A stretch of 64,000 nucleotides of DNA from positions 6,053-70,052 of the forward strand of contig CASEOG010000004.1 of NCBI GenBank assembly GCA_949289575.1, in the 5' to 3' direction. Numbering within the stretch: position 1 is the stretch's first letter; each line of letters opens with the position of its first letter. Below, piece by piece: positions 31,227 to 43,617 of this stretch. Under the pieces are notes generated by a model. That model did not search any database. It was not told where the DNA came from and saw only the letters and a list, made by a program, of their open reading frames with translations. The position numbers and the translations under genes are program-made. The DNA comes from an uncultured Spirochaetales bacterium. GTDB taxonomy: Bacteria; Spirochaetota; Spirochaetia; JAFGXN01.

Positions 31227-32747
31227 ATGTCGGCAAAATATATCGGATCGATTGATCAGGGAACAACAAGTACACGGTTTATTCTGTTCGATTATGCGGG
31301 GAAACCCTGTTTTTCGTATCAGAAAGAGCATAAGCAGATTTATCCGAAACCGGGCTGGGTAGAACACAATCCTTTGGAAATCCTTGAAAATACGAAAGAA
31401 TGTATTCGGGAAACTCTCCGACAGGCCTCGGTCGAAAATCCGAGGGAGGAAATTGCGGCGGTCGGAATTACGAATCAGAGGGAAACGATTATAGCCTGGA
31501 ATCGCGAAACAGGAAAACCTTATGCCAACGCTGTTGTCTGGCAGGATTTGCGCGGAGAGGACTTTATCAATGAAATGCTGGCCGGCGGCGGGAAATACCG
31601 TTTTCTCGAAAAAACGGGACTGATGCTTTCTCCCTATTTTTCCGGATCGAAAATGAAATGGCTTTTGGACAATGTTCCCGGTTTGCGCGAAGATGCCGAA
31701 TCGGGAAAAGCTCTTTTCGGAACCATCGACACCTGGGTTTTATGGAATATGACCGGCGGACCCCGCGGCGGTCTGGCCGTGACCGACGTGACCAATGCCT
31801 GCCGTACTTTTTTAATGGATTTGGCAACGCTTTCCTGGGATGACGAACTGCTGACGCTGTTCGGATGTCCGAAAAAAGCTCTCCCCGAAATTGTCTCCTC
31901 TATTCCGGAACTTCCTTACGGTTATTCGTCGGCCGATTCTCCTTTCGGGGAAGGGGTTCCTTTTTCGGGAATTCTGGGAGATCAGCAGGCCGCTCTGTTC
32001 GGTCAGACCTGTTTTAAAGCGGGAATGTCGAAATCGACTTACGGAACCGGCGGTTTTCTTCTGATGAATGTCGGGAAACATATTGTTTATTCCGATTCCG
32101 GTCTTCTGACAACGGTGGCCTACAGAAAAGGAAACGAAAAACCGGTTTATGCGTTGGAAGGTTCGGTGGCCGTTGCCGGCTCGCTGATTCAGTGGGTCAG
32201 GGACAATCTCGGTTTAATTCGCAATTCAAAAGAAATCGACCGCTTGGCGGCCGAAGTCGAAGATAACGGCGGTGTCTATTTTGTGCCGGCCTTTGCCGGT
32301 CTTTTTGCCCCGTACTGGCGCAGCCGTGCACGGGGCGTCATCTGCGGTTTAACCGGATATGCCGACCGCCGGCATCTCGCACGGGCCGTTTTGGAGGCAA
32401 CCGCTTTTCAGACTTTTGATATCTTCCGGGCGATGAGCCGCGATGCCGATATCCGAATCCCCGAATTGAAGGTCGACGGCGGTATGACAAACAGCGAACC
32501 GTTGATGCAGTTTCAGTCCGATTTGCTGAAGATACCGGTTATCCGTCCTGTTGTTACGGAAACAACCGCTCTCGGGGCGGCCTATGCGGCCGGTCTGTCG
32601 GTCGGATTCTGGAATTCGTTTGACGAACTGATTCAAAACTGGCATGTCGATAAAGTGTGGAATCCTCAGATGGATGCCGGCCGTCGTCTGGCTTTACTGG
32701 CCGATTGGAAAAAAGCGCTGGAAAGAAGTTACGGGTGGATTGATTAA
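31227..32747 (+). CDS. glpK: glycerol kinase
   Basis: 506 aa. FGGY kinase N-terminal IGSIDQGTTSTRFILFD and EHNPLEI. Strong RBS GAGGAGG. Confidence 0.95.
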   Translation: MSAKYIGSIDQGTTSTRFILFDYAGKPCFSYQKEHKQIYPKPGWVEHNPLEILENTKECIRETLRQASVENPREEIAAVGITNQRETIIAWNRETGKPYANAVVWQDLRGEDFINEMLAGGGKYRFLEKTGLMLSPYFSGSKMKWLLDNVPGLREDAESGKALFGTIDTWVLWNMTGGPRGGLAVTDVTNACRTFLMDLATLSWDDELLTLFGCPKKALPEIVSSIPELPYGYSSADSPFGEGVPFSGILGDQQAALFGQTCFKAGMSKSTYGTGGFLLMNVGKHIVYSDSGLLTTVAYRKGNEKPVYALEGSVAVAGSLIQWVRDNLGLIRNSKEIDRLAAEVEDNGGVYFVPAFAGLFAPYWRSRARGVICGLTGYADRRHLARAVLEATAFQTFDIFRAMSRDADIRIPELKVDGGMTNSEPLMQFQSDLLKIPVIRPVVTETTALGAAYAAGLSVGFWNSFDELIQNWHVDKVWNPQMDAGRRLALLADWKKALERSYGWID

Positions 32748-33370
32748 TCCGTCACGATTTCTTTGACAGGTTCTTCCGGATCGTTCCCGGTTTCGTTCAG
32801 TCTTTCGAGGTTTTGCAGACGGTTTTCGAGAAGGTACCGGCGGTTGCGGTATTTTCTGTAGGGAAACTGAAAGCCGACGCAGGCGCCCGCACCGAGAACC
32901 GTTACAACGGCACCGGCAATGCTCAGGTTGCCGAAGGCGGTCGTGACAGCCGACGGATTCGGGTTGGAGTCGGTCGGAATCGGTGTGTACGGGTATTCGC
33001 TTCCTGTTTCGATAAAGGCATCGAGAATCACCATTAAGAGACCGAGTGCGGTGATGCCGACAGATGTAAACTGGAAAGTTTTGTACATAATGTAGTTTTT
33101 CTTGTTTTCTTCCAGTTTCCGGCGAAGAGATTCGGGAGTCTCTTCGCTTTCTTCGGATATTTCGGGAAAGAAAAATTCATCGGGTTCCGTATCGGGTATT
33201 TCTATCTGAACCGGAGCCGATATATCCGTTTCGGAAAGATCGGTTTCGGTAGAGGTGTTTTCGCTCTCTTTCGGCAATTCCGATACGGCCGGTTTTTCCG
33301 TTTCGCCGGATAAGGAAAATGCGTAAACCGGCAGAATGCAGAAAATAAAAAAAAGCGGAATTTTTTTCAT
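32744..33370 (-). CDS. hypothetical secreted/membrane protein (signal peptide, acidic Glu/Ser/Thr-rich region, one TM helix, C-terminal cytoplasmic tail)
   Basis: 208 aa with no recognisable family. Convergent 4-nt overlap with glpK. Confidence 0.5.
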   Translation of the reverse strand: MKKIPLFFIFCILPVYAFSLSGETEKPAVSELPKESENTSTETDLSETDISAPVQIEIPDTEPDEFFFPEISEESEETPESLRRKLEENKKNYIMYKTFQFTSVGITALGLLMVILDAFIETGSEYPYTPIPTDSNPNPSAVTTAFGNLSIAGAVVTVLGAGACVGFQFPYRKYRNRRYLLENRLQNLERLNETGNDPEEPVKEIVTD

Positions 33371-33541: not shown

Positions 33542-33613
33542 GCGTTTGTGGTATAACGGCTATTACCTCAGCCTTCCAAGCTGAAGACGTGGGTTCGACT
33601 CCCATCAAACGCT
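33542..33613 (+). tRNA. tRNA-Gly (anticodon TCC)
   Basis: Hand-folded cloverleaf. Acceptor GCGTTTG/CAAACGC. Anticodon stem TCAGC/GCTGA with loop cTTCCaa. T-arm GGGTTCGACTCCC. No encoded CCA. Confidence 0.85.
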
Positions 33614-33627
33614 GACATGTTGATGTC

Positions 33628-33701
33628 GCCACCTTAGCTCAGCCGGCCAGAGCACGTGACTTGTAATCTCGGGGTCGTCAGTTCGAATCTGACAGGTGGC
33701 T
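33628..33701 (+). tRNA. tRNA-Thr (anticodon TGT)
   Basis: Acceptor GCCACCT/AGGTGGC. D-arm GCTCAGCCGGCCAGAGC. Anticodon loop cTTGTaa. T-arm GTCAGTTCGAATCTGAC. Confidence 0.85.
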
Positions 33702-33709
33702 GTGAAAAC

Positions 33710-33792
33710 GGGGAGGTTCCCGAGTGGCCAAAGGGGCCAGACTGTAAATCTGTTGGCTTACGCCTTCGAAGGTTCGAATCCTTCTCTCCCCA
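33710..33792 (+). tRNA. tRNA-Tyr (anticodon GTA), type II with long variable arm
   Basis: Closely parallels E. coli tRNA-Tyr (GGGGAGGTTCCCGAGTGGCCAAAGG...ACTGTAAATCT...GAAGGTTCGAATCCTTC). Confidence 0.85.
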
Positions 33793-33797
33793 TAATA

Positions 33798-33823
33798 ATC
33801 CGGATTTTTCCGGATTTTTTTTT
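33798..33823 (+). terminator. rho-independent terminator after the tRNA cluster
   Basis: ATCCGG-attttt-CCGGAT hairpin followed by a T9 run. Confidence 0.6.
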
Positions 33824-33839
33824 GCTCCGATTCTTCCTC

Positions 33840-33868
33840 TTGACTTTCCCTTCTTTCTTCTTTAGAAT
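33840..33868 (+). promoter_or_regulatory. sigma70-like promoter (TTGACT-17-TAGAAT) for the ykgJ-like/large envelope protein operon, with the TSS predicted at the ATG (leaderless)
   Basis: TTGACT 33840-45, 17-bp spacer, TAGAAT 33863-68. The ATG lies at 33876, 7 nt downstream, with no SD. Confidence 0.4.
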
Positions 33869-33875
33869 ATTACGA

Positions 33876-34310
33876 ATGTTTTTTGATAACGGACTATCAT
33901 TTGAATGTCAGAAGTGTTCGGCCTGTTGCCGGCACGAACCCGGCGCGGTTTTTCTCAGAAAAGGAGAAGCCGGGAAAATAGCTTCTTTTTTGAATATGGA
34001 TGTTCGTGATTTTTTTCGTGCTTTTTGCCGTATTCTTTGGAGCGGGGACGGGGACCGTGTTTCTCTTCGCGAAAAATCCAACTATGACTGTATTTTTTGG
34101 CAGGACGGGGGATGCCGGATTTACCCGGTTCGACCGGTTCAATGTTCTGCCTATCCGTTCTGGCCGCACATTGTGGAATCATTAACGACATGGAACGAAG
34201 AGGCTCTCCGCTGTCCGGGGATTGGAAAAGGAAGAGTCTTTTCTTCGGACGAGATTACAGACCGGCTCGAAATGATGAAAGGAGATTTCAGTGATGGAAC
34301 TGAATTTTAA
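33876..34310 (+). CDS. YkgJ-family cysteine-cluster (CxxCxxCC) putative Fe-S/zinc protein
   Basis: 144 aa. N-terminal FECQKCSACCRHEPGAVFL and downstream DGGCRIY...PVQCSAYPF are typical of UPF0153/YkgJ. The longer six-frame ORF from 33696 was discarded because it runs through the tRNA genes. Confidence 0.7.
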   Translation: MFFDNGLSFECQKCSACCRHEPGAVFLRKGEAGKIASFLNMDVRDFFRAFCRILWSGDGDRVSLREKSNYDCIFWQDGGCRIYPVRPVQCSAYPFWPHIVESLTTWNEEALRCPGIGKGRVFSSDEITDRLEMMKGDFSDGTEF

Positions 34311-34485
34311 GGAAACAGTCGGGTTATATATTCTTTTGAAGAACAATGCGGCCGGTCTCTCTGCTTCTTTGAGCCGATTACTCGTTCGCATCGAAAAAAA
34401 ATTAAACGAGGAACTGACCTTGGCCCAGTTGCGGAATATTGAAGATTTCTACCGGTCACTGGATGATTACGAGGGGGGATTATGA
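34291..34485 (+). CDS. small hypothetical protein (64 aa), translationally coupled on both sides
   Basis: GTG/ATG start (34291/34294) after GGAG. It overlaps the ykgJ-like gene by 20 nt. Its stop overlaps the ATG of the giant envelope gene (ATGA). Predicted helical, no known family. Confidence 0.5.
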   Translation: MMELNFKETVGLYILLKNNAAGLSASLSRLLVRIEKKLNEELTLAQLRNIEDFYRSLDDYEGGL

Positions 34486-37400
34486 AACGATTTATTCTGA
34501 TAGGCCTTTTTATTTTTATTTCGGGCTCTGTTTTTTCCCTGAATACGGAACCGGACGGGAAATCCGACCGTTATTCGTCTCTCCTGAACCCGGGTCAAAC
34601 CTTCTCGGGCGCAGGGGTTCTTCGAAACGACTCTCTGACCGATACTTTTGTGAATCCCGCTGTTCAGGCGTTTCAGCAGCGATTTGCTTTTGATATCAAT
34701 TATGCCGGAATTGTCGGGCATACGGATGCGCATCCCCGAAACGGTTATCCCGGACATGCCGTGACACTCGGAGCGGGACTGCCGAGTCCGATCGGTTATT
34801 TCACACTGACCGGCGGTTTTTTTTATTCCGATTTAAGTGATTACGCGCTGGGGTCTCAGGGATTCTTTGATGTGGCGCTCGGAAAGAAGGTTTTCGACGA
34901 TCTTTATCTCGGACTGGGTCTGAAGAGTGTCATCGGCAGTCTTGCCGGAAGTTCGATCGATTATCTTGTGGCCGCCGATCTCGGTGTCGTCCATACACCC
35001 GGGAATGTCGGAAGAGTGACGGATTTCAAATGGGGAATGGCGCTTCAGAATCTCGGGTGGGGAACAATGACGCCGTTTAATCCGAATCAAAACAGCCGCG
35101 GATTACTGGCTCCCGATCTCTTTTCCGTTCAGGCGGGTCTTTCTTTTTCCGTTCTGAAGACAGAGCGGTTTAATCTGGGATTCGAGACGGAAATCCTTTT
35201 GCCTTCTTTTATGAATTTCGAGGCGGGCGCCGGATTCCTGTTCGAATTCGAGCGTCTTTTTGCCTTTTCTGTCTCTTCCCGTGTCAATGCCCTTCAGTTG
35301 CGTGACGGCGATTTTTCAAATCTTCTGCCTTCTTTCGGTTTCGTATGCCGGTATATCCCCAAGGCGCAGGATGCATCCGTACTGGATGATTTGACAGAGG
35401 TTCACGTAAAAGCGGGAACCGGCGCCCTCAAAGGTTTGAATTTGTGGACTTATCAGGCCGGAACTACTGTTTTCCTCGGAGGAGAAGATACTTTTGCTCC
35501 CGAAATTCGATTCGAGATTCAGAGCGAAAGCGGAGAAACCGATGCCTTTTTCTCGGCGACGGATACCGCCTCCGTGGCATCTTCGCAAGCTGTCGGGAAA
35601 TCCGATGCATCCGTTTTCGAAAAACAGGCGCCGGCCAAGGAGCTTCCGATTGCGGTTCGGGGGAAAAAATCCGAAACAGCTTCCTCCGTCAAACAGGACA
35701 TACCCGATAGCGGCGAAGCGGTTGTCCGGCCGGTTCCTTCGGTACAGGCACCTCCTCATTCTGACAATCCGAGACCCGAATATTATGTCTCTCCCAATTT
35801 CGACGGTATTCAGGATTCTCTGAGAATTTCGTTTCGTCTTCAGGATACACGGCTTATCAAATCTTATTCTTTTATTATCGAAGACGAAAGCGGACGGATT
35901 GTCAGAGTTATTCAGAATAAAGAACAGCGCAGCGAAAATAAAGGCAGAGATTTTTTTAAAAACCTGTTCCGCCCTTACAAAGGAATTCATATTCCTTCCG
36001 AAATAGTTTGGGATTGTACCTCCGATTCGGGAGAGATTGTTGCGGACGGGCTCTATTCGTTTTATTTTACGGCCTCCGACGAAAACGACAACATTTCTGT
36101 TTCTCCCCGTACCTATTTTGTCATTGATACCGTCTATCCGCAAGTCGATTTCGTGTATGACGAAGACGACCTTATTTTTTCACCCAATCAGGACGGGAGC
36201 AAAGATTTTCTGACGGTTACGCAAATCTCATCGGAAGAAGTTCTTTGGAAAACGCAAATCGAAAATAATTTTATCGGTATCGTTGATATAAAGAATTATA
36301 AAGGTAAACTTCCCGAACAACTGGTCTGGGGAGGAAAGAATCAAAGCGGTATTCCCGTTCCTGACGGAACATACCGTTATCGTGCGGAAGCGGTTGACAG
36401 GGCAGGAAACCGGACCGAGAAAATTCTGGACGGAATCATTTTAAATACGGAACAGACTCCGATTCAGCTCTTTACCGATGCGACGGCAATCTCTCCGAAA
36501 AGCGAAACGGGAAATCCTTTCCTGACGCTTACTCCCGATTTGGCCGTCAAAGACGATATTGTCGAATGGCAAATTTGTATTATCAACAGCAGCGGAGAAG
36601 CTGTCAAAGAGTTAAAAGGCACGGGTGTCATGGAAGGATTTATTTTCGACGGACTGGATTCCGACGGTCAGCCTTATCCGGACGGTGAGTATACGGCCCG
36701 ATTGAATGTGGTTTACCGTAACGGCAACCGGCCTCAGTCGGTGACGCCCCGGTTTTATATTGATACGGTAGCGCCTTCGGCCGAAGTCTCGATTCCCGAT
36801 CCGATTTTTTCACCCGATCAGGACGGGCAGAAAGATTGTCTGGTTATCAGGCAAAAAGGTTCGGTTGAATCCGAATGGACGGCGGAAATTTCCGATCGTA
36901 ACGGCGATATTGTTTTTACGCAAATATGGTACGGAGAACTCCCCGAATCGTTCCTTTTTGACGGCTATGACAGGAACAGTCGTGTTTTGCCGGATGGGGT
37001 TTATTCCTATCGCCTGACGGCGACCGATGATGCCGGAAACAGCGGCGGCAGTCCTTCCGTCCCGTTTACGGTTGATACCCGGAAAAGTGCCGTTGCGCTG
37101 AAGACCGGATATGCCGCTTTCAGTCCGAACGGTGACGGGATTAAAGATACCGTCGAACTGATTCCCGTCATCGAAAATCAGGGGAATGTGACATCTTACA
37201 GTCTGACAGTCATTGACGGATCCGGTCGGATTGTCCGTGATTTTTCCGACAGTCGGTATATTCTTCCCCGGTACGAATTTGACGGAAAAGACAGAAACGG
37301 AAAACTGCTGCCTGACGGAAATTATCGTTTTAAACTGAACGTTGTTTATGCGAACGGGCAGAATGTGACACAAATTTCGCGTCCGGTCCGGCTGAAAACA

Positions 37401-38777
37401 ACCTTTCCGAAGGCCGAATTGTCGTATGATAATTTGTGGTTTTCCCCGAACGGTGACGGATTAAGAGATACACTGACATGGAAACAGAAATCGACATCGG
37501 AGGATTTGTGGACGGGCATAATCAGAAACAAAAACGGGAAAGAAGTTCGGACATTCAAAACAACGGGAAAACTTTCCGATTTTGTTTGGGACGGAAAAAA
37601 CAATCAGGGAAATCTGTTGCCGGACGGCGTATACTCTTATTCGCTCGAAGCGACGGATGAGGCCGGGAACCGGTTCTTTACCGAAGTCAGGGATATTCGT
37701 CTCGACCGGAGTCCGACACTGGTGTCGGTTTCTGTCTCTTCCCGCGGAATTTCGCCCAACGGCGACGGACGCCTCGATACAATGCTCATTAAACCGACTG
37801 TTTCCAATAAAACAGGTATCCGCAGCTGGAATATTGTTCTGAAACATGAGAACGGTGAGCGGAAAACTTACGCGGGAGAAGGTAATACCGTACCCGAATC
37901 GATAGAATGGGACGGACTGACCGACGCCGGAAAGCTGACGGAAGGAAAGTACAGCCTGACAATGACGGTTGACTATTTTAAAGGCGATCGTCCCGAAGCG
38001 GTTATCGACAATCTGATTGTCGACATAACGCCGCCCGTATTGAAAGTCAGTCTGAGCCCGCTGCCGTTCTCTCCCGATAATGATAATGTTAATGATGAAT
38101 TATCGATCGAGATCGGATTCGAGGAGGCTGGAGATATCGGGAAATGGCAGTTTGCCATCTTTGACCCCAAAAATAATCCCTTTAAAAAATTCGAGGGGCG
38201 GGGTAAAAAGGTCGGCGTCATCCGCTGGGACGGGCGTTCCTTTAAAGGGGATACTGTATTCTCGGCAGAGGATTATCCTTACCGATTTATGGCTGCCGAT
38301 CAATGGGGAAATTACAGCGAAATTTCCGGTGTGATTCCCGTTGATATTTTGGTGGTCAGAGACGGCGACCGGTTGAAAATTCAGATTGCCAATATCAATT
38401 TTGCGCCCAATTCACCCTCTCTTTCAAGCGGTGATCCCGAATTAATGAAGAAGAACCGGTCTGTTCTTAACCGCCTGGCACAAACACTGAAAAAATACAA
38501 AACGTATCAGGTACAGGTGGAAGGTCACGCCAATGCCGTATTATGGTATAATGCGGTACAGGCCGAAAAAGAAGAGAGAGAAAATTTATATCCGCTTTCA
38601 CTGGCGCGCGCAAAAACAATCGTTCAGGAACTTGAAAAATTGGGGGTCGATCCCCAGCGCCTGTCGGCAGTCGGTAAAGGCGGTACGAATCCGGTTATCG
38701 ATCCGAAAAAAGATGCGGAACTGTGGAAACGCGAAAACTGGAAGAACCGTCGTGTCGAATTTATTCTGGAAAAATAG
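34482..38777 (+). CDS. giant cell-envelope protein: signal peptide + N-terminal beta-barrel-like domain + 8 tandem FlgD-Ig-like repeats + C-terminal OmpA-like peptidoglycan-binding domain
   Basis: 1431 aa. N-terminal ~350 aa are Gly/aromatic-rich with alternating beta-strand patterning. Eight ~105-aa units each carry the FlgD-Ig-like signature FSPNxDGxxD plus a W...DG...G..LPDG.Y.Y...A.D.AGN motif. The C-terminus (NRLAQTLKKYKTYQVQVEGHANAV...LSLARAKTIVQELEKLGV...NRRVEF) is OmpA_C-like. Confidence 0.8.
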   Translation: MKRFILIGLFIFISGSVFSLNTEPDGKSDRYSSLLNPGQTFSGAGVLRNDSLTDTFVNPAVQAFQQRFAFDINYAGIVGHTDAHPRNGYPGHAVTLGAGLPSPIGYFTLTGGFFYSDLSDYALGSQGFFDVALGKKVFDDLYLGLGLKSVIGSLAGSSIDYLVAADLGVVHTPGNVGRVTDFKWGMALQNLGWGTMTPFNPNQNSRGLLAPDLFSVQAGLSFSVLKTERFNLGFETEILLPSFMNFEAGAGFLFEFERLFAFSVSSRVNALQLRDGDFSNLLPSFGFVCRYIPKAQDASVLDDLTEVHVKAGTGALKGLNLWTYQAGTTVFLGGEDTFAPEIRFEIQSESGETDAFFSATDTASVASSQAVGKSDASVFEKQAPAKELPIAVRGKKSETASSVKQDIPDSGEAVVRPVPSVQAPPHSDNPRPEYYVSPNFDGIQDSLRISFRLQDTRLIKSYSFIIEDESGRIVRVIQNKEQRSENKGRDFFKNLFRPYKGIHIPSEIVWDCTSDSGEIVADGLYSFYFTASDENDNISVSPRTYFVIDTVYPQVDFVYDEDDLIFSPNQDGSKDFLTVTQISSEEVLWKTQIENNFIGIVDIKNYKGKLPEQLVWGGKNQSGIPVPDGTYRYRAEAVDRAGNRTEKILDGIILNTEQTPIQLFTDATAISPKSETGNPFLTLTPDLAVKDDIVEWQICIINSSGEAVKELKGTGVMEGFIFDGLDSDGQPYPDGEYTARLNVVYRNGNRPQSVTPRFYIDTVAPSAEVSIPDPIFSPDQDGQKDCLVIRQKGSVESEWTAEISDRNGDIVFTQIWYGELPESFLFDGYDRNSRVLPDGVYSYRLTATDDAGNSGGSPSVPFTVDTRKSAVALKTGYAAFSPNGDGIKDTVELIPVIENQGNVTSYSLTVIDGSGRIVRDFSDSRYILPRYEFDGKDRNGKLLPDGNYRFKLNVVYANGQNVTQISRPVRLKTTFPKAELSYDNLWFSPNGDGLRDTLTWKQKSTSEDLWTGIIRNKNGKEVRTFKTTGKLSDFVWDGKNNQGNLLPDGVYSYSLEATDEAGNRFFTEVRDIRLDRSPTLVSVSVSSRGISPNGDGRLDTMLIKPTVSNKTGIRSWNIVLKHENGERKTYAGEGNTVPESIEWDGLTDAGKLTEGKYSLTMTVDYFKGDRPEAVIDNLIVDITPPVLKVSLSPLPFSPDNDNVNDELSIEIGFEEAGDIGKWQFAIFDPKNNPFKKFEGRGKKVGVIRWDGRSFKGDTVFSAEDYPYRFMAADQWGNYSEISGVIPVDILVVRDGDRLKIQIANINFAPNSPSLSSGDPELMKKNRSVLNRLAQTLKKYKTYQVQVEGHANAVLWYNAVQAEKEERENLYPLSLARAKTIVQELEKLGVDPQRLSAVGKGGTNPVIDPKKDAELWKRENWKNRRVEFILEK
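35781..38350 (+). repeat. eight tandem divergent ~315-bp coding repeats (FlgD-Ig-like modules) inside the giant envelope gene
   Basis: SPNxDG motifs occur at about 35790, 36178, 36493, 36805, 37123, 37441, 37753 and 38068. The period is about 315 bp. The first unit is longer. Confidence 0.7.
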
Positions 38778-38786
38778 GAGTTCTTT

Positions 38787-39785
38787 GTGAGTCGAAAATA
38801 TCTTTTTTTTCTTCCCGGAGCCGTATTAATCCTCATTGTTATCGTACTTGTGACAGCTTTCCCGGTTTTGAACTCGTCTCCGTCCCGTTCGGCAACGACG
38901 GTCCGTTCGTTTACTGTAGAGAGCGGAGAAGGTGTTTCCCATGTGGCTCACCGCCTGAAAGAAGAGGGACTGATTCGCAGTGAAACTTTTTTCAAGCTGA
39001 TATGCAGACTGTCGCGGCTTCAGTTTTCTTTGCAGAAAGGAAATTATCTGATCGAAGGCCGTTTGTCGTCAACGGCGATTCTGTCCATGATGACATCCGG
39101 AAAGCAGGTGACCGTTTCGGTCGTCATCCCGGAGGGTTATACGGTGCGGCAGATAGCCGATGTGCTTTATACCGGCAAAATCATTGCGGATCGGGACCGG
39201 TTCATTGAAGCCGTTCATGCCTTTTCTCTCGAGAAGTACGGTGTTAATCATACCGGAGCGGAAGGATTCCTCTTTCCCGATACCTATGTTTTTCAGTATA
39301 ACATGTTTTACAATGATATTATTTCCGTCATGACCGACAACTTTTTCAAAAAAGCAGACGAGGCGGGGCTGACAATCGATAATCATTTTTACGAAAAGGT
39401 CATTCTGGCTTCTGTTGTCGAAAAGGAGTATCGGGTCGAAGACGAGGCGCCGGTCATCGCTTCCGTATTTCTGAACCGGTTGAAAAAAAAGATGAGGCTC
39501 GAATCCTGTGCGACGGTTCTTTATGTTATCACCGAAATTCTCGGAAAACCGCATCCGAATCAGCTTTTTTATTCGGACTTGGAAATCGACAGTCCTTTTA
39601 ATACATACCGTAATGCGGGACTGCCTCCCGCTCCGGTATCGAATCCGGGAATGGTCGCATTGAAGGCGGCTTTTTATCCGGCAGAAACCGATTATCTGTT
39701 TTTCGTTGTCAGGGGTGACGGATCGGGGCGGCATACATTTACGAAAGATTTTTATACCCACAACTATTATAAGCGGCATAATTGA
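38787..39785 (+). CDS. mltG: endolytic murein transglycosylase MltG (YceG-like)
   Basis: 332 aa. N-terminal TM anchor. YceG signatures (LASVVEKE, CATVLYV, YNTYRNAGLPPAPVSNPG). GTG start with AGGAG RBS embedded in the end of the upstream gene. Confidence 0.85.
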   Translation: MSRKYLFFLPGAVLILIVIVLVTAFPVLNSSPSRSATTVRSFTVESGEGVSHVAHRLKEEGLIRSETFFKLICRLSRLQFSLQKGNYLIEGRLSSTAILSMMTSGKQVTVSVVIPEGYTVRQIADVLYTGKIIADRDRFIEAVHAFSLEKYGVNHTGAEGFLFPDTYVFQYNMFYNDIISVMTDNFFKKADEAGLTIDNHFYEKVILASVVEKEYRVEDEAPVIASVFLNRLKKKMRLESCATVLYVITEILGKPHPNQLFYSDLEIDSPFNTYRNAGLPPAPVSNPGMVALKAAFYPAETDYLFFVVRGDGSGRHTFTKDFYTHNYYKRHN

Positions 39786-39786
39786 A

Positions 39787-41583
39787 ATGGCAGTGATTCC
39801 CAAAGAGGTGATTACGGCAGTTATGGAGTCTGCCTCTATTGTAGATGTTGTTTCGCGTTATACGACAAAAATTGTCAGGAAAGGAGAGCGCTACTTTGCC
39901 TGTTGTCCTTTTCATAACGAGAAAACGCCCTCCATGTCCATCACCCCTTCCAGAAATATGTTTCACTGTTTCGGATGCGGCGAAAGCGGAACTGTGATTT
40001 CTTTTCTGCAGAAAATCGAAAAAATCTCATTTTCGGAAGCTGTGGCCAGATTGGCCGATGAATTTCATGTTCCGTTTCATCTCTCTTCCGTTCAGACAGT
40101 TTATGACAGGCAGCGCGACGCTTACTATGCGATTTATGCCCGGGTGAGGGATTTGTATCATGAAGAACTGTTAAATCGCAGGAAAGATTCTGCGATCGAC
40201 AGATATATTAAAGAACGGGGAATCCCCGAAGAGGTCATTCGGGAATTCCGGCTGGGGTATTCACCGGCCGACCGGCAGTGGCTGTGGGGGCGTTTGCAGT
40301 CGGAAGGGTATTCTCCTTCATATCTGAAATCGGATATCGGTCTGTTCTCCAAAAATTATGATAAAATTTCTTTCTTTTCAAATCGGCTTATGTTTCCCAT
40401 TCACGACAGTTTCGGGCATTGTCTGGCTTTCGGCGGGCGGCTTTTGGAAGGAGAGGGGCCTAAGTATCTGAATACGGGAAAAACATCTTATTTCGAAAAA
40501 GGAAACGGATTTTATTTCGGACCGGATGCTTTCCGGGAAATGAGAATTCATGAGACTGCCGTTTTGTGCGAGGGGTATATGGACGTGATTGCCTTTTACC
40601 GGGCCGGAATTAAGAATGTTTTTGCGCCTTTAGGGACGGCATTTACGCAAAACCAGGCCGAGTTGCTGGCCGTTTCGGGCGCCAAAACGGTTTTGATCGG
40701 TTTTGACGGAGATGATGCGGGAAAACGGGCGGCCGCAAAGGCTGTCGAAATTCTTCGACGAAAAAATATCGGAGCAAAAGTTGCCGAATTCACGGAATAT
40801 AAAGATCCGGATGAATATTTAAACAAAGAGGGACCCGAATCGCTGAAAAATTTATTAAAAAATGGTATAAACGGGTTGGATTTTCTAATAAAAAATATTA
40901 TAGTAAAACATGGAAATTTAGATTCTCCTGAAGCAAAAGAAGCTGTTGTTTCGGAGGTTTTTCCGTATATCGGTTCTATCGGGAGTGAAGTAGGTAAAAA
41001 CGCAGCCTTACAGTCTTTAGCGGAGAAATTGCATATCAGCGAGAAGGCCGTATCGGATGATTTTCGGGTTTTTTCCGAAAAAAATCATGACCGGACAAAG
41101 ACTGCCGCGACAAGACCGACACTCAAGACAGAGCCGCCGGTTCCTGCCGTACGGACAGACGACAGCCAGGAATTTTTTCTGTTTGCGGCGTTGGTAGCGG
41201 AGCCGGCCTGTTTCGAACAGGTCAGGCGATGTATCGGTGTGGAGGATCTTGTTTCGGCTCGGGCTCGTGAAATTTATTATCTGTTGGAAGATGCGTACAG
41301 AAAAAATCGGTTAAATTCCGATGCGATTCTTTCAATGATGGAAGATTCCTCCGCGGTGCGGTTTATCGTCGAGAAACTCGCCGATAATGAGTTTTCATCC
41401 GAGAATATTAAAAAAATGATTCCCGATTTGATTTTACAGGAGAGAATTTTCATTTTGAAAAACAAAATAGATGATCTTCAATTTAAGATTTCCCATTCCT
41501 CCGGTAAAAGCAGAGAAACGGTCGATAATTTTATTCGTGAGAAAATAAAATATGAAAAAGAGTTGTCGAAACTCAAACCGTAA
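39787..41583 (+). CDS. dnaG: DNA primase
   Basis: Zinc-binding CCPFHNEKTPSMSI...FHCFGCGESG. TOPRIM domain (EGYMDVI, GFDGDDAG). ATG 39787 right after the mltG stop. Confidence 0.9.
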   Translation: MAVIPKEVITAVMESASIVDVVSRYTTKIVRKGERYFACCPFHNEKTPSMSITPSRNMFHCFGCGESGTVISFLQKIEKISFSEAVARLADEFHVPFHLSSVQTVYDRQRDAYYAIYARVRDLYHEELLNRRKDSAIDRYIKERGIPEEVIREFRLGYSPADRQWLWGRLQSEGYSPSYLKSDIGLFSKNYDKISFFSNRLMFPIHDSFGHCLAFGGRLLEGEGPKYLNTGKTSYFEKGNGFYFGPDAFREMRIHETAVLCEGYMDVIAFYRAGIKNVFAPLGTAFTQNQAELLAVSGAKTVLIGFDGDDAGKRAAAKAVEILRRKNIGAKVAEFTEYKDPDEYLNKEGPESLKNLLKNGINGLDFLIKNIIVKHGNLDSPEAKEAVVSEVFPYIGSIGSEVGKNAALQSLAEKLHISEKAVSDDFRVFSEKNHDRTKTAATRPTLKTEPPVPAVRTDDSQEFFLFAALVAEPACFEQVRRCIGVEDLVSARAREIYYLLEDAYRKNRLNSDAILSMMEDSSAVRFIVEKLADNEFSSENIKKMIPDLILQERIFILKNKIDDLQFKISHSSGKSRETVDNFIREKIKYEKELSKLKP

Positions 41584-41601: not shown

Positions 41602-43617
41602 ATGAAGAAAGAAATTAATGGCTTTTCTACCAAAGAAATTCTTGATTTAATTAAACCGAGGAAAAAGCTTTCGTTCGACGAATTAAATGATTTGCTTCCG
41701 GACAATTTCGATGCCAACTATCTCGACGAAGTTTACGATTTGTTGGAAGATGCGGGAATTGAGTTGGAAGATGATTCTTTTATCGATAACGACGATGAGA
41801 AAGAATCGGAGATGACGGCGGAGGACGATATGGATTCCGCCGATTATCAGCCCGAATCCGAACCGAATCTCGACGACATTGAAAATATCGACTCTCTCGC
41901 GGATGAGGATGACGAAGATATTGTCGAAATGGATGACGATATGCGTCCCGATGCAGCTATTGCCAAACTGGGTGAGATGCGGCAAATGTCTTCCGGAATG
42001 GATGACATGGAGACACTCGAAAATCCCGATATCGAGGCGGAAGAGACCGAAGATGAAGATCTCGATGTTTATGCGGACGAGGATTCAAGACAGGATGCAT
42101 CCGGCGATTCCGACTCCGATATGCCTTCTTCTTCCGGTATGGTGACTTCATCAAAGGATATTTCGGCAAATGATGATCCGATCCGGCTTTATTTGCATGA
42201 AATCGGAAAAGAGCCCCTGCTGAGCGGAGAGGAAGAAGGTGCATTGGCCCGTGAAATGGAAAAAGGGGCCGAAATGATTCTTCATGTGATTAAATCAAGC
42301 GGTATGATTATCGATCGGTTTAATCAGCTGCTGGTGCGTATCGCCGAACGCCAGTCTCATCTGGATGATAATACAAAAAAAATCGACGACCATGAGGATT
42401 CCAAAAAACTCGACACATACAAGGACCGTCTTAAAGGAATTGCATCAAAGATTAAATCATACAAAGAACTGAAAAGTAAATACAAGACGTACAGCGAATT
42501 CCTCGAAGACGAAGAGCTTCAGAAAAAAAAGAAAAGTCTTTTGAAAGCGATCCAAGGAATCGTGATCGAACAGGATGATATTATTACCTATTCCGATGAA
42601 TTTATTACCGTTCAGAATAAAATCCACAGAATTCAGAATGAACAGGAAAAACTTCAGAAAGTCCTGAAAATTTCGAGTATAAAAGAATTGCGTTCACTCA
42701 GCAGGGATTTGGCTATCTCTTCCAAACGGGGAGATATCGAAACCCGGCTGATGCTCAGTGCCAATCTGATTAAAGACCGGATTCGAAAATATCAGGAAAA
42801 TTACAATACATTTAAGGACATCGAATTTCTGTTTGAGGACAGAATCCCCGACATTCTGGAAAAAGCAATCGAGATTAAAAAAGGAAAGGAAAAGCTTAAA
42901 TCGGCCAAAGATAAACTGATTCAGTCCAATCTCAGACTTGTAGTCAGTATCGCCAAAAAATACACGAATCGCGGACTTCATTTTTTCGATCTCGTTCAGG
43001 AAGGAAATATCGGTCTGATAAAAGCGGTTGAAAAATTCAATTATAAATTGAATTATAAATTTTCGACTTATGCGACATGGTGGATTCGTCAGGCGATTAC
43101 CCGTTCTATATCGGATCAGGCACGCACAATCCGTGTGCCGGTCCATATGATTGAGCAGATTAATAAAGTATCCCGCGAATCAAGACAACTGATGCAGTCG
43201 TTGGGCCGTGAACCGACCGACGAGGAAATTGCCGAAAAACTCGGATGGCCTCTGGAGAAAGTGACCTCCGTAAAAAGTGTCGCCAGAGAACCGATTTCGT
43301 TGGAATCTCCTTTGGGCGAGGAAGAAGATTCTCTTTTGGGAGATTTTATAGAAGATAAAGCGGTCGAGAATCCGGCCAATCAGACGGCATTTAAAATGTT
43401 GCAGGAGCATTTGCGCGGAATACTCAATGATCTGCCGGAAAGAGAACGGGAGGTCATTCAGATGCGCTTCGGACTGGAAGACGGATATTCGCTTACGCTT
43501 GAAGAGGTGGGACTCTATTTTAATGTGACCAGAGAGCGAATTCGGCAGATAGAAGCAAAAGCATTGAGACGTTTAAAATTACCGAAACATACGGAACGGT
43601 TAACGGATTATAAATAA
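41602..43617 (+). CDS. rpoD: RNA polymerase sigma factor RpoD (sigma-70) with long acidic N-terminal region
   Basis: Region 2.x [34 protein letters not shown]. Region 4 ([28 protein letters not shown]). Acidic region 1.1 and non-conserved region. Confidence 0.95.

Follow-up and report, generated by a model that had tools for sequence, protein, structure and literature searches.

The window, the whole 64,000-nucleotide stretch of DNA that was analyzed, encodes a 1431-aa protein that joins a predicted β-barrel, a linker, eight Ig-like repeats and a divergent OmpA-like domain. This uncharacterized spirochete envelope protein, here called the giant, probably ties the outer membrane (OM) to the distant cell wall. 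We lean, with modest confidence, toward the reading that it is a long-reach OmpA-type tether from the OM to peptidoglycan (PG) across the flagella-containing periplasm. A literature search found no published description of this barrel, Ig-repeat and OmpA-like architecture, in agreement with the first-pass annotation, which had not recognized the arrangement as a described system. The giant and its parts are located as follows.

34482-38777, plus strand: giant, 1431 aa (ORF and Pfam)
34482..34538, plus strand: putative signal peptide, aa 1-19 (read from the sequence; modeled as a helix at 2-19)
34539..35510, plus strand: FadL/PorV-fold outer-membrane barrel, aa 20-343 (fold prediction)
35511..35777, plus strand: low-complexity Ser/Ala/Val/Pro-rich linker, aa ~344-432 (composition)
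35778..38378, plus strand: eight Ig-like repeats, aa 433-1299 (Pfam, motif positions, repeat alignment)
38379..38777, plus strand: divergent OmpA-like domain, aa ~1300-1431, and stop codon (PF00691)

The putative signal peptide reads MKRFILIGLFIFISGSVFS, followed by LN, and contains no lipobox Cys. The N-terminal domain had been described as β-barrel-like, and structure prediction gave a 14-strand FadL/PorV-type barrel (AF2 model, pLDDT 89.5, pTM 0.85). The barrel consists of an N-terminal hatch segment with N58-P59-A60, the 14 β-strands and a conserved post-barrel segment (G333/D336/P340). Across 95 sequences, N58 and P59 were invariant and A60 was at least 90% conserved. The best structural match was PorV, which shares the fold without being a transporter. 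No sequence-level match was obtained with the Pfam FadL, UPF0164 and Toluene_X models.

Family members of ~1340 aa are shorter than the window lineage by ~90 aa, most of which is the linker; at the related loci L010, L011 and L012, the first repeat begins shortly after the barrel. The repeats start at aa 436, 566, 670, 776, 880, 987, 1090 and 1196 and are ~105 aa long, except for the first (~130 aa). Their pairwise identity is 16-41%, and they fall into two alternating subtypes (r2/r4/r6 and r3/r5/r7). Pfam searches returned FlgD_ig as the top family (1.8e-40), followed by CHU_C (1.2e-39) and Big_13 (1.2e-16). As all three match the same repeats, a generic Ig-like fold is indicated. The FlgD_ig and PF00691 searches confirmed the eight FlgD-Ig-type modules and the OmpA C-terminus of the first-pass annotation, but its hint of a hook-cap or T9SS link finds no evidence in matches to generic Ig-like repeats. 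Eight repeats were counted in 55 of the 73 complete family members. Among the others 4 or 12 repeats prevail, and 10, 11, 14 and 16 occur once each.

The OmpA match (PF00691, aa 1317-1412) scored 46.4 bits against a cutoff of 27.2. The domain carries the motif GHAN-(x)19-LSLARA ... NRRVEF and an insertion of ~10 residues. All complete family members (73/73) lack the canonical DAP-binding Asp and retain the Arg. The best solved-structure relative is Treponema pallidum Tp0624 (PDB 5JIR, E 1.4e-5), for which the same Asp loss and no DAP binding were reported (PMC5104382). Most spirochetes have ornithine peptidoglycan, and their PG layer lies distal to the OM with the flagella in between (PMC5104382). 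Loss of the Asp with retention of the Arg fits this ornithine-type peptidoglycan. Because the Asp is absent family-wide, we only infer peptidoglycan binding by the giant; wall binding by this domain could also be absent or aimed at another ligand. The earlier claim of an OM-anchored, peptidoglycan-bound protein thus stands as to a predicted OM barrel and the presence of an OmpA-like domain, but is weakened by the non-canonical nature of that domain and its missing Asp.

The exact giant protein was found on 16 metagenome contigs, full-length homologues extend down to 34% identity, and the barrel has ~200 representative relatives, indicating that the architecture did not arise by chance. The host of the window is an uncultured Spirochaetia MAG lineage. 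Other Spirochaetia encode the system in two pieces, a barrel gene of ~355 aa and, directly after it, a separate Ig-OmpA gene. The stand-alone barrels (355-361 aa) occur in three unrelated genomic contexts, and the arm gene starts within 3-41 nt. Its 1045-1055-aa product carries a separate signal peptide, the OmpA-like motif seen in the giant and eight repeats, a number found in each of the complete split partners (3/3); the fourth split locus is truncated. The adjoining, Sec-exported arm gene supports a periplasmic Ig-OmpA arm that works with the barrel. Together with the counts in the fused proteins, the repeat number suggests that arm length is constrained.

As a tether, the giant would be exported by Sec and inserted by BAM, and aa 20-343 would fold in the OM into the predicted 14-stranded barrel of FadL/PorV type. 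A barrel of this kind has both ends on the periplasmic side, which would leave the C-terminal extension hanging into the periplasm: first a flexible linker of ~90 aa, then eight rigid Ig-like domains arranged as four A/B pairs, and last the divergent OmpA-like domain. The separate Sec signal peptide of the split Ig-OmpA proteins argues for the same placement. These two lines of evidence support, as an interpretation, the earlier proposal that the Ig repeats span the flagella-housing periplasm. The OmpA-like domain would dock non-covalently on the cell wall. With the ~4 nm generally expected for an Ig-like domain and the periplasmic dimensions generally assumed for spirochetes, the eight-domain arm would reach ~30 nm and could span the distance from OM to PG, which is unusually large in spirochetes. 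Conservation of the NPA hatch suggests that the barrel may also keep FadL-like uptake of hydrophobic compounds.

The ykgJ-like gene, a small ORF and the giant overlap in series and run on into mltG-dnaG-rpoD.

33542..33792, plus strand: tRNA-Gly(TCC), tRNA-Thr(TGT), tRNA-Tyr(GTA) cluster, directly upstream (ARAGORN)
33797..33816, plus strand: terminator-like hairpin and T-run after tRNA-Tyr (consensus scan, pattern match only)
33840..33868, plus strand: promoter-like site TTGACT-17-TAGAAT (consensus scan, 10/12 consensus matches)
33876..34310, plus strand: ykgJ-like gene, ATG start, 144 aa, CxxCxxCC putative Zn/Fe-chelating domain (Pfam PF03692)
34294 (ATG, 63 aa) or 34291 (GTG, 64 aa) to 34485, plus strand: small ORF, AGGAG at 34280-34284
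38787-39785, plus strand: mltG, 9 nt after the giant (Pfam, NCBIfam, gene calls)
39787-41583, plus strand: dnaG, 1 nt after mltG (Pfam, NCBIfam, gene calls)
41602-43617, plus strand: rpoD, 18 nt after dnaG (Pfam, NCBIfam, gene calls)

The hairpin reads AATCCGGATTTTTCCGGATT, then TTTTTTT. With only 7 nt between the end of the -10 element and the ykgJ ATG, the ykgJ transcript may lack a leader or carry a very short one. Position 33840 was rejected as a CDS start, being the first base of the promoter-like site, and a longer ORF from GTG-33696 is an artefact that reads through the tRNA genes. At related loci a tRNA also precedes ykgJ, and in L008, L009 and L029 tRNA-like antisense ORF artefacts were seen ahead of it. 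The consensus scan found no strong terminator between the downstream genes mltG, dnaG and rpoD, which are probably co-transcribed. Domain searches, gene calls and the short gaps bear out the claim that the operon continues into these three genes. Their order is kept in L005-L007, L011, L013-L015, L031 and L032. Other cell-envelope genes also surround the giant: murJ upstream, and mreBCD and a PBP2-like penicillin-binding protein gene downstream of the adjoining mltG.

The ykgJ-like product matched PF03692 with 36.5 bits (E 8e-9, cutoff 23). Its gene overlaps the small ORF by 17 nt (ATG start) or 20 nt (GTG start), and ATGA at 34482-34485 contains the small-ORF stop and the giant start. The tight coupling described earlier was thus reproduced, its 20 nt holding for the GTG start. 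The ATG is the start chosen by gene callers and seen in homologues, so the ORF first given as 64 aa is real and conserved but is better read as 63 aa. Its product is helical, acidic and cytoplasmic and belongs to an uncharacterized family. Purifying selection acts on the small ORF, which represents a genuine gene family.

The first-pass annotation took ykgJ and the small ORF for a maturation or regulatory unit dedicated to the giant, in which the cytoplasmic proteins would mature, chaperone or regulate it. The tight overlaps, a separate Shine-Dalgarno sequence for each of the three genes and the selection on the small ORF favor this idea. The ykgJ-small-giant order is kept in L008 at 32-45% identity with the same 20-nt overlap, ykgJ lies upstream in L005-L009, L014-L016, L018, L021, L024, L026, L029 and L032, and the small ORF immediately precedes the giant in the window lineage, in L005-L009, L011 and L013-L015 and in 14/17 metagenome loci. 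The synteny breaks elsewhere, however. The L028/L029 lineage has tRNA-ykgJ-small-mltG-dnaG with the giant absent from the operon, and neither gene was present near Alkalispirochaeta-type giants (L010 and L012) or near the split loci (4/4). More distant relatives carry an MBL-fold gene between ykgJ and the small ORF, and in most relatives the ATGA overlap couples the small ORF to this gene, with ~47 nt separating it from the giant. Since the small ORF and the giant each occur without the other, a dedicated three-gene module is not supported, and we consider it quite unlikely. Both ykgJ and the gene of the 63-aa protein are instead real and conserved, apparently translationally coupled neighbors, not obligate partners of the giant, in a conserved putative operon tRNA-ykgJ-(MBL)-small-(giant)-mltG-dnaG-rpoD.

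The other alternatives concern the giant itself. Its main role might be to take up hydrophobic nutrients as a FadL-type channel, with the arm positioning the channel or handing substrates on across the wide periplasm and with tethering incidental. This is unlikely but is the strongest alternative, and uptake and tethering are not mutually exclusive. The closest structure is the non-transporter PorV, Pfam FadL and Toluene_X gave no match, and transport alone leaves the conserved eight Ig and OmpA-like domains, fused or in an adjoining gene, unexplained. A surface adhesin with its Ig-like repeats outside the cell, binding host or substrate molecules, is improbable. Intimin and invasin likewise join an N-terminal barrel to C-terminal Ig-like domains, but they use a 12-strand inverse-autotransporter barrel, whereas the giant has a plugged 14-strand FadL/PorV barrel. 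Its C-terminal ~500 aa (aa 931-1429) align to positions 99-579 of the NCBIfam Lsa66 model with 267 bits, which is well under the 700-bit cutoff, so the giant is not an Lsa66 equivalog. Lsa66 showed binding to laminin, fibronectin and plasminogen, and immunofluorescence revealed it on intact leptospires (PMC3130794). The most distal domain of the giant, however, is OmpA-like, a periplasmic wall-binding module; the arm of the split systems carries a common Sec signal peptide and no recognized signal for translocation across the OM; and most carriers are free-living spirochetes from the environment or from bioreactors. Even less probable is an arm that acts on the flagella, its FlgD-Ig-like repeats binding or corralling the periplasmic filaments to keep the ribbon in position instead of acting as a plain spacer. 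The Pfam family ranked first is FlgD_ig, and arm and flagella would share a compartment (PMC5104382), but the competing CHU_C and Big_13 matches indicate a generic fold, the FlgD N-terminal domain is absent, and no flagellar genes lie nearby in any locus examined.

The tether reading was compared with known systems. In a survey of OM tethers, OmpA, defined as a barrel plus PF00691, was the only tether type found in Spirochaetes (bioRxiv 10.1101/2021.05.31.446380). Like the giant, OmpA of Escherichia coli and Acinetobacter baumannii has an N-terminal OM β-barrel and a periplasmic C-terminal PF00691 domain in one polypeptide. The OmpA barrel is, however, an 8-strand OmpA_membrane domain, whereas the giant has a 14-strand FadL/PorV fold, ~950 aa of linker and eight Ig-like domains between barrel and OmpA domain, and no DAP-binding Asp; its system also exists as two adjoining genes. 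T. pallidum FadL-type proteins resemble the giant's barrel by fold only and carry an α-helical extension instead of Ig repeats and an OmpA-like domain. Tp0624 D3 (PDB 5JIR) shares the missing Asp, LSxxRA and a spirochete origin, but its motif is TAD(x)6[E/Q]xxLSxxRA against GHA[N/V](x)14-22 LSxxRA in the giant family, and Tp0624 has unrelated D1/D2 domains, no barrel and no Ig repeats. Lsa66 of Leptospira interrogans (LIC10258; NF053608) is laid out like the split arm gene, with FlgD-Ig-type repeats between a signal peptide and a C-terminal OmpA-like domain. The Lsa66 study, which presents the protein as a surface-detectable, matrix-binding adhesin of a pathogen, records no fused barrel and describes just the signal peptide and the OmpA-like C-terminus (PMC3130794). 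With Braun's lipoprotein the giant would share a concept and has no homology: it has an Ig-domain array instead of a coiled coil, and its attachment is presumed non-covalent. Lpp is an OM-anchored, wall-attached ruler of periplasm width whose length sets the OM-PG spacing. Relative to known OmpA-type tethers, the giant would add a FadL/PorV-type barrel, a long Ig arm and an atypical OmpA-like domain.

The 1431-aa giant envelope protein is predicted to combine a FadL/PorV-fold outer membrane (OM) barrel, eight Ig-like domains and an OmpA-like domain. Its gene and the features upstream of it were arranged as listed.

Features at and upstream of the giant gene
33542-33792: tRNA-Gly, tRNA-Thr and tRNA-Tyr cluster, preceding the ykgJ-like gene
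33797-33816: terminator-like hairpin, after the tRNA cluster
33840-33868: promoter-like TTGACT-17-TAGAAT, after the hairpin
33876-34310: ykgJ-like ORF, 144 aa, with a CxxCxxCC domain (PF03692)
34291 (GTG) or 34294 (ATG) to 34485: small ORF, 63 aa from the ATG
34482-38777, plus strand: giant, 1431 aa, its start sharing ATGA with the TGA stop of the small ORF

The first-pass annotation had described three ORFs tightly coupled by overlaps, and the ORF coordinates were reproduced. The ykgJ-like and small ORFs overlap by 17–20 nt, depending on the small-ORF start, and the small ORF joins the giant through ATGA. Gene callers and all close homologues indicated the ATG as the small-ORF start. Shine-Dalgarno-like sequences were observed for the small ORF (AGGAG at 34280) and for the giant (GAGGGGGG around 34470). 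The operon had also been said to run into mltG-dnaG-rpoD. These three genes follow the giant at spacings of 9, 1 and 18 nt. No convincing terminator was found between them, in agreement with that description.

The end of the -10-like TAGAAT is 7 nt from the ykgJ ATG, which is not preceded by a Shine-Dalgarno sequence; thus the ykgJ message may be leaderless or near-leaderless. Alternatively, transcription of the tRNA cluster may continue into ykgJ in spite of the hairpin (33797-33816). A GTG-initiated ORF at 33696-34310 (204 aa) was rejected because it passes through tRNA genes. Antisense ORFs within the giant (e.g., 35316-36143, minus strand) were considered spurious, as the plus frame is conserved in all homologues. 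For dnaG, the mechanical ORF list gave a TTG start at 39706 (625 aa, 80-nt overlap with mltG); gene callers and homologues favoured the ATG at 39787 (598 aa). Between glpK and the tRNA cluster lies a 208-aa ORF (32744-33370, minus strand) with 62% identity in L005, a close relative of the window; it had no match in Pfam or NCBIfam. The wider neighbourhood, examined in locus L001 (window-equivalent ~24.5–58.8 kb), holds many genes of cell-envelope and housekeeping function. Those upstream are tgt, murJ and genes for a HEAT-repeat protein, a tRNA U5-methyltransferase, a DUF4015 protein and glpK; those past rpoD encode a Zn_ribbon_9 protein, a TPR protein, MreB, MreC, MreD and a PBP2-like penicillin-binding protein.

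Residues 1–19 of the giant resemble, by eye, a lipobox-free Sec signal peptide. The barrel (aa 20–343) was modeled using AlphaFold2 with an alignment of 95 relatives (pLDDT 89.5, pTM 0.85). The model contains a short-helix segment followed by 14 β-strands, which supports the earlier suggestion of an N-terminal barrel. In this predicted structure the strands are antiparallel and transmembrane, as in the FadL/PorV fold. The hatch segment carries an NPA motif; all 95 sequences share N58 and P59, and at least 90% share A60. The NPA motif is needed for FadL gating (PMC8407342), and its retention leaves room for a possible additional FadL-like uptake function. An inverse autotransporter of the intimin/invasin type, which has a 12-stranded barrel and a passenger threaded to the surface, was ruled out on barrel type.

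No curated family, including Toluene_X/FadL and UPF0164, matched the barrel in a Pfam hmmscan of aa 1–352 at E values up to 10, and no NCBIfam model matched residues ~20–345. A word-index protein search with aa 1–373 (34482-35600) found no relatives. An exhaustive HMMER search identified 202 representatives of barrel relatives. They were of two kinds. In one, the barrel is fused to repeats and an OmpA-like domain; the other consists of stand-alone barrels, whose only matches, DUF3575 and TraF_2, were both below threshold.

A conserved GxxDxxxPxI segment lies just past the barrel. The barrel is followed by a linker of ~90 aa, rich in Ser, Ala, Val and Pro and absent from most relatives. Because of this linker, the protein has 1431 aa, compared with ~1340 aa in most relatives. 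The eight Ig-like repeats proposed earlier were located at starting positions aa 436, 566, 670, 776, 880, 987, 1090 and 1196. FlgD_ig, CHU_C and Big_13 models of Pfam overlap on them. The repeats alternate between two subtypes: repeats 2, 4 and 6 are 36–41% identical to each other, and repeats 3, 5 and 7 are 25–30% identical. Over the repeat region (aa 433–1299, 35778-38378), the subtype motifs read FSPNxDG...DGxYxYxxxAxDxAGN and SPxxxG...GxYxxxLxVxYxNGxxP. Among 73 complete fused proteins, 55 have 8 repeats, 6 have 4 and 8 have 12; 10, 11, 14 and 16 repeats were each seen once. The prevalence of 4, 8 and 12 suggests that the evolutionary unit may be a pair or a quartet of Ig-like domains.

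A link to the FlgD hook cap or to T9SS cargo had been raised, and strong HMM hits led these memberships and that of Lsa66 to be weighed; none of them held. A FlgD hook cap has an N-terminal domain plus a single FlgD_ig; the giant lacks the former and matches FlgD_ig-type repeats only. NCBIfam FlgD models scored far under their cutoff (best, 110 vs 230 bits). T9SS type-B cargo, which carries its sorting domain at the very C-terminal end, was rejected since the CHU_C/TIGR04131 matches are internal (e.g., aa 771–850 and 986–1060) and the C-terminus is OmpA-like. The Lsa66 equivalog (NF053608), which calls for at least 700 bits over the full model, was also rejected, at 267 bits over model positions 99–579 only.

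The C-terminal domain (aa 1317–1412) matched PF00691 with 46.4 bits against a gathering threshold of 27.2. The canonical OmpA_C binding motif is TD(x)7NxxLSxxRA, in which Asp, Asn and Arg are critical (PMC5104382). The giant instead has GHAN-(x)19-LSLARA: the Asp is missing, an insertion of ~10 aa is present, and the Arg is kept. For the peptidoglycan (PG)-binding OmpA_C domain described before, the family assignment stood; the canonical binding motif is absent. The other complete family members show the same loss of Asp and retention of Arg. Nearly all of the 73 complete family members have GHA[N/V/A] in place of TD; the canonical TD was seen in none, with 5 giving no match to the search pattern. 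By sequence, the best solved relative is Treponema pallidum Tp0624 (5jir), which has likewise lost the Asp and whose D3 domain shows no DAP binding; L-ornithine replaces DAP in most spirochetes (PMC5104382). Cell-wall binding by the giant's OmpA-like domain would be a reasonable inference.

The exact giant protein was found on 16 metagenome contigs, and the nearest named genomes are uncultured Spirochaetia MAGs. Named members come from Alkalispirochaeta americana and Rectinemataceae, and their annotations go no further than "OmpA family protein", "Ig-like domain (group 3)" or "FlgD immunoglobulin-like domain containing protein". The version of A. alkalica has 1787 aa. The genome scan used the narrower alignment A2 (two peptide patterns, 8 loci), and it under-samples the taxonomic range.

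Stand-alone barrels comprised 57 representatives of 185–381 aa, the complete ones being ~340–380 aa. A conserved PPxI segment precedes an acidic tail at their end, and the two may form a docking element. Four stand-alone barrels were looked up. In three unrelated contexts (beside an rnf operon, a lipase gene and a resolvase gene), a separate gene of 1045–1055 aa lies 3–41 nt downstream. The arm that it encodes starts with a signal peptide, has exactly eight repeats and shares the atypical OmpA-like motif of the giant. At the fourth locus, the contig stops after two repeats.

Split loci: ~350-aa barrel gene, then arm gene
L033, 6001-10265
L035, 1708-5926
L036, 3545-7801
L037, 263-2110

This natural pair of fused and split forms is strong sequence-based evidence that the barrel and the arm would work together. 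The signal peptides at the split loci indicate that the arm probably reaches the periplasm via ordinary Sec export.

The ykgJ-like protein matched PF03692 (36.5 bits vs 23), with CQKCSACC visible in the sequence; NCBIfam gave no match. A profile search with the small ORF identified 89 clusters of 53–84 aa (mostly 57–65 aa), all unannotated. For the small ORF compared with its 79%-identical relative in L005, pN was 0.16 and pS 0.76. AlphaFold2 confidently modeled a short protein of helices (pLDDT 92.9). These results mark the small ORF as a genuine, conserved gene.

In relatives, the three-gene synteny was found in part. The order ykgJ-small-giant-mltG-dnaG-rpoD is kept in the close relatives L005–L007, and L008 (32% barrel identity) keeps ykgJ-small-giant with overlaps of 20 and 8 nt. 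The order in most of the remaining relatives is ykgJ-MBL-fold gene-small-giant-mltG-dnaG-rpoD, with an ATGA overlap between the MBL gene and the small ORF, which lies ~47 nt upstream of the giant. The MBL-fold (Lactamase_B_2) gene encodes ~313 aa (8063-9004 in L014) and also occurs in L009, L011, L013, L015 and 14 metagenome loci. It is missing from the ykgJ/small junction in the window lineage, L008 and L028/L029, and tblastn across the 64-kb window found no copy. In L028 and L029, from a peat-metagenome lineage, both the MBL gene and the giant are absent.

Giant-less loci: tRNA-ykgJ-small-mltG-dnaG
L028, 104-1378
L029, 544-1243

Conversely, Alkalispirochaeta-type giants occur in the order sbcB-cysE-giant with ykgJ and the small ORF absent nearby, and neither gene is near any split locus. 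Since L028 and L029 carry the operon without the giant, the small ORF tracks the housekeeping operon, not the giant. The YkgJ-like and small proteins would be best seen as conserved members of an operon ending in mltG-dnaG-rpoD, not as a dedicated maturation unit for the giant. For the small protein, a role linked with ykgJ/MBL or with the housekeeping operon seems to us more likely than that of a giant-specific chaperone. It represents a family of small proteins, conserved beside mltG-dnaG-rpoD, that had no annotation before.

At the level of prediction, barrel and arm are coupled in the fused as well as the split forms, and the number of repeats is constrained. In spirochetes, the PG layer is distal to the OM, with flagella between (PMC5104382). 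From the barrel topology and the Sec export of split arms, the arm would be periplasmic. Its OmpA-like domain would dock on ornithine-type PG, and the giant would serve as a long-reaching tether or spacer that links OM and wall non-covalently and is fitted to a wide, flagella-containing periplasm. At the general expectation of about 4 nm per Ig-like domain, eight would span about 30 nm. A bolder reading, less likely than not, is that this architecture, fused or split, is the principal OM-wall connector of many non-pathogenic Spirochaetia. Its four A/B Ig pairs would then form a length-quantised ruler, of which versions with 4, 12 and 16 repeats exist, and would set an OM-PG distance at which the periplasmic flagella have room and can rotate. 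The divergent OmpA-like domain would represent an ornithine-type PG recognition mode.

Other readings were weighed against the tether. A giant that is primarily a transporter fits the FadL/PorV fold but leaves the conserved arm unexplained, and we consider it unlikely. A dedicated module of ykgJ, small ORF and giant, put forward earlier as a maturation or regulatory unit, is quite improbable: the association breaks in both directions, and this two-way decoupling contradicts it. A surface adhesin would account for the resemblance to Lsa66 (267 bits vs a 700-bit cutoff; PMC3130794), yet it is at odds with the barrel type, with an OmpA-like domain at the end of the protein and with split arms that are exported by Sec alone, and has very little probability. 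Flagellum binding by the arm is the least probable reading, since only what a generic Ig model happens to be called points to it.

How the spirochete OM is held to a far-off wall with rotating flagella between them is poorly understood, and the Tp0624 study framed the OM-PG linkage strategy as an open issue (PMC5104382). As an OM-wall tether, the giant is a well-founded candidate for this question on wholly computational grounds. The family offers a concrete, testable form of it, with a defined OM anchor, a constrained spacer and a family-wide variant of the wall-binding domain. As A. alkalica and A. americana are cultured carriers, Lpp-style repeat-deletion and cryo-ET work is feasible in principle.

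A literature search found no paper describing the giant's architecture. A survey defined the OmpA-type tether as a barrel plus PF00691 in one protein and found it to be the sole tether class in Spirochaetes (bioRxiv 10.1101/2021.05.31.446380). The giant has both parts and, by its architecture, represents a distinct variant within this class. Classical E. coli-type OmpA has an 8-stranded OmpA_membrane barrel, whereas the giant has 14 modeled strands and no OmpA_membrane match in Pfam. The FadL/PorV barrel, the Ig-like repeats and the OmpA-like domain are known parts, and the logic of barrel plus wall binding is that of OmpA. The family also puts the FadL/PorV fold to a new use. What is new is the combination of these parts, together with a long Ig spacer of constrained repeat number, an OmpA motif that is non-canonical throughout the family, the occurrence of both fused and split forms, and the associated small-protein family.
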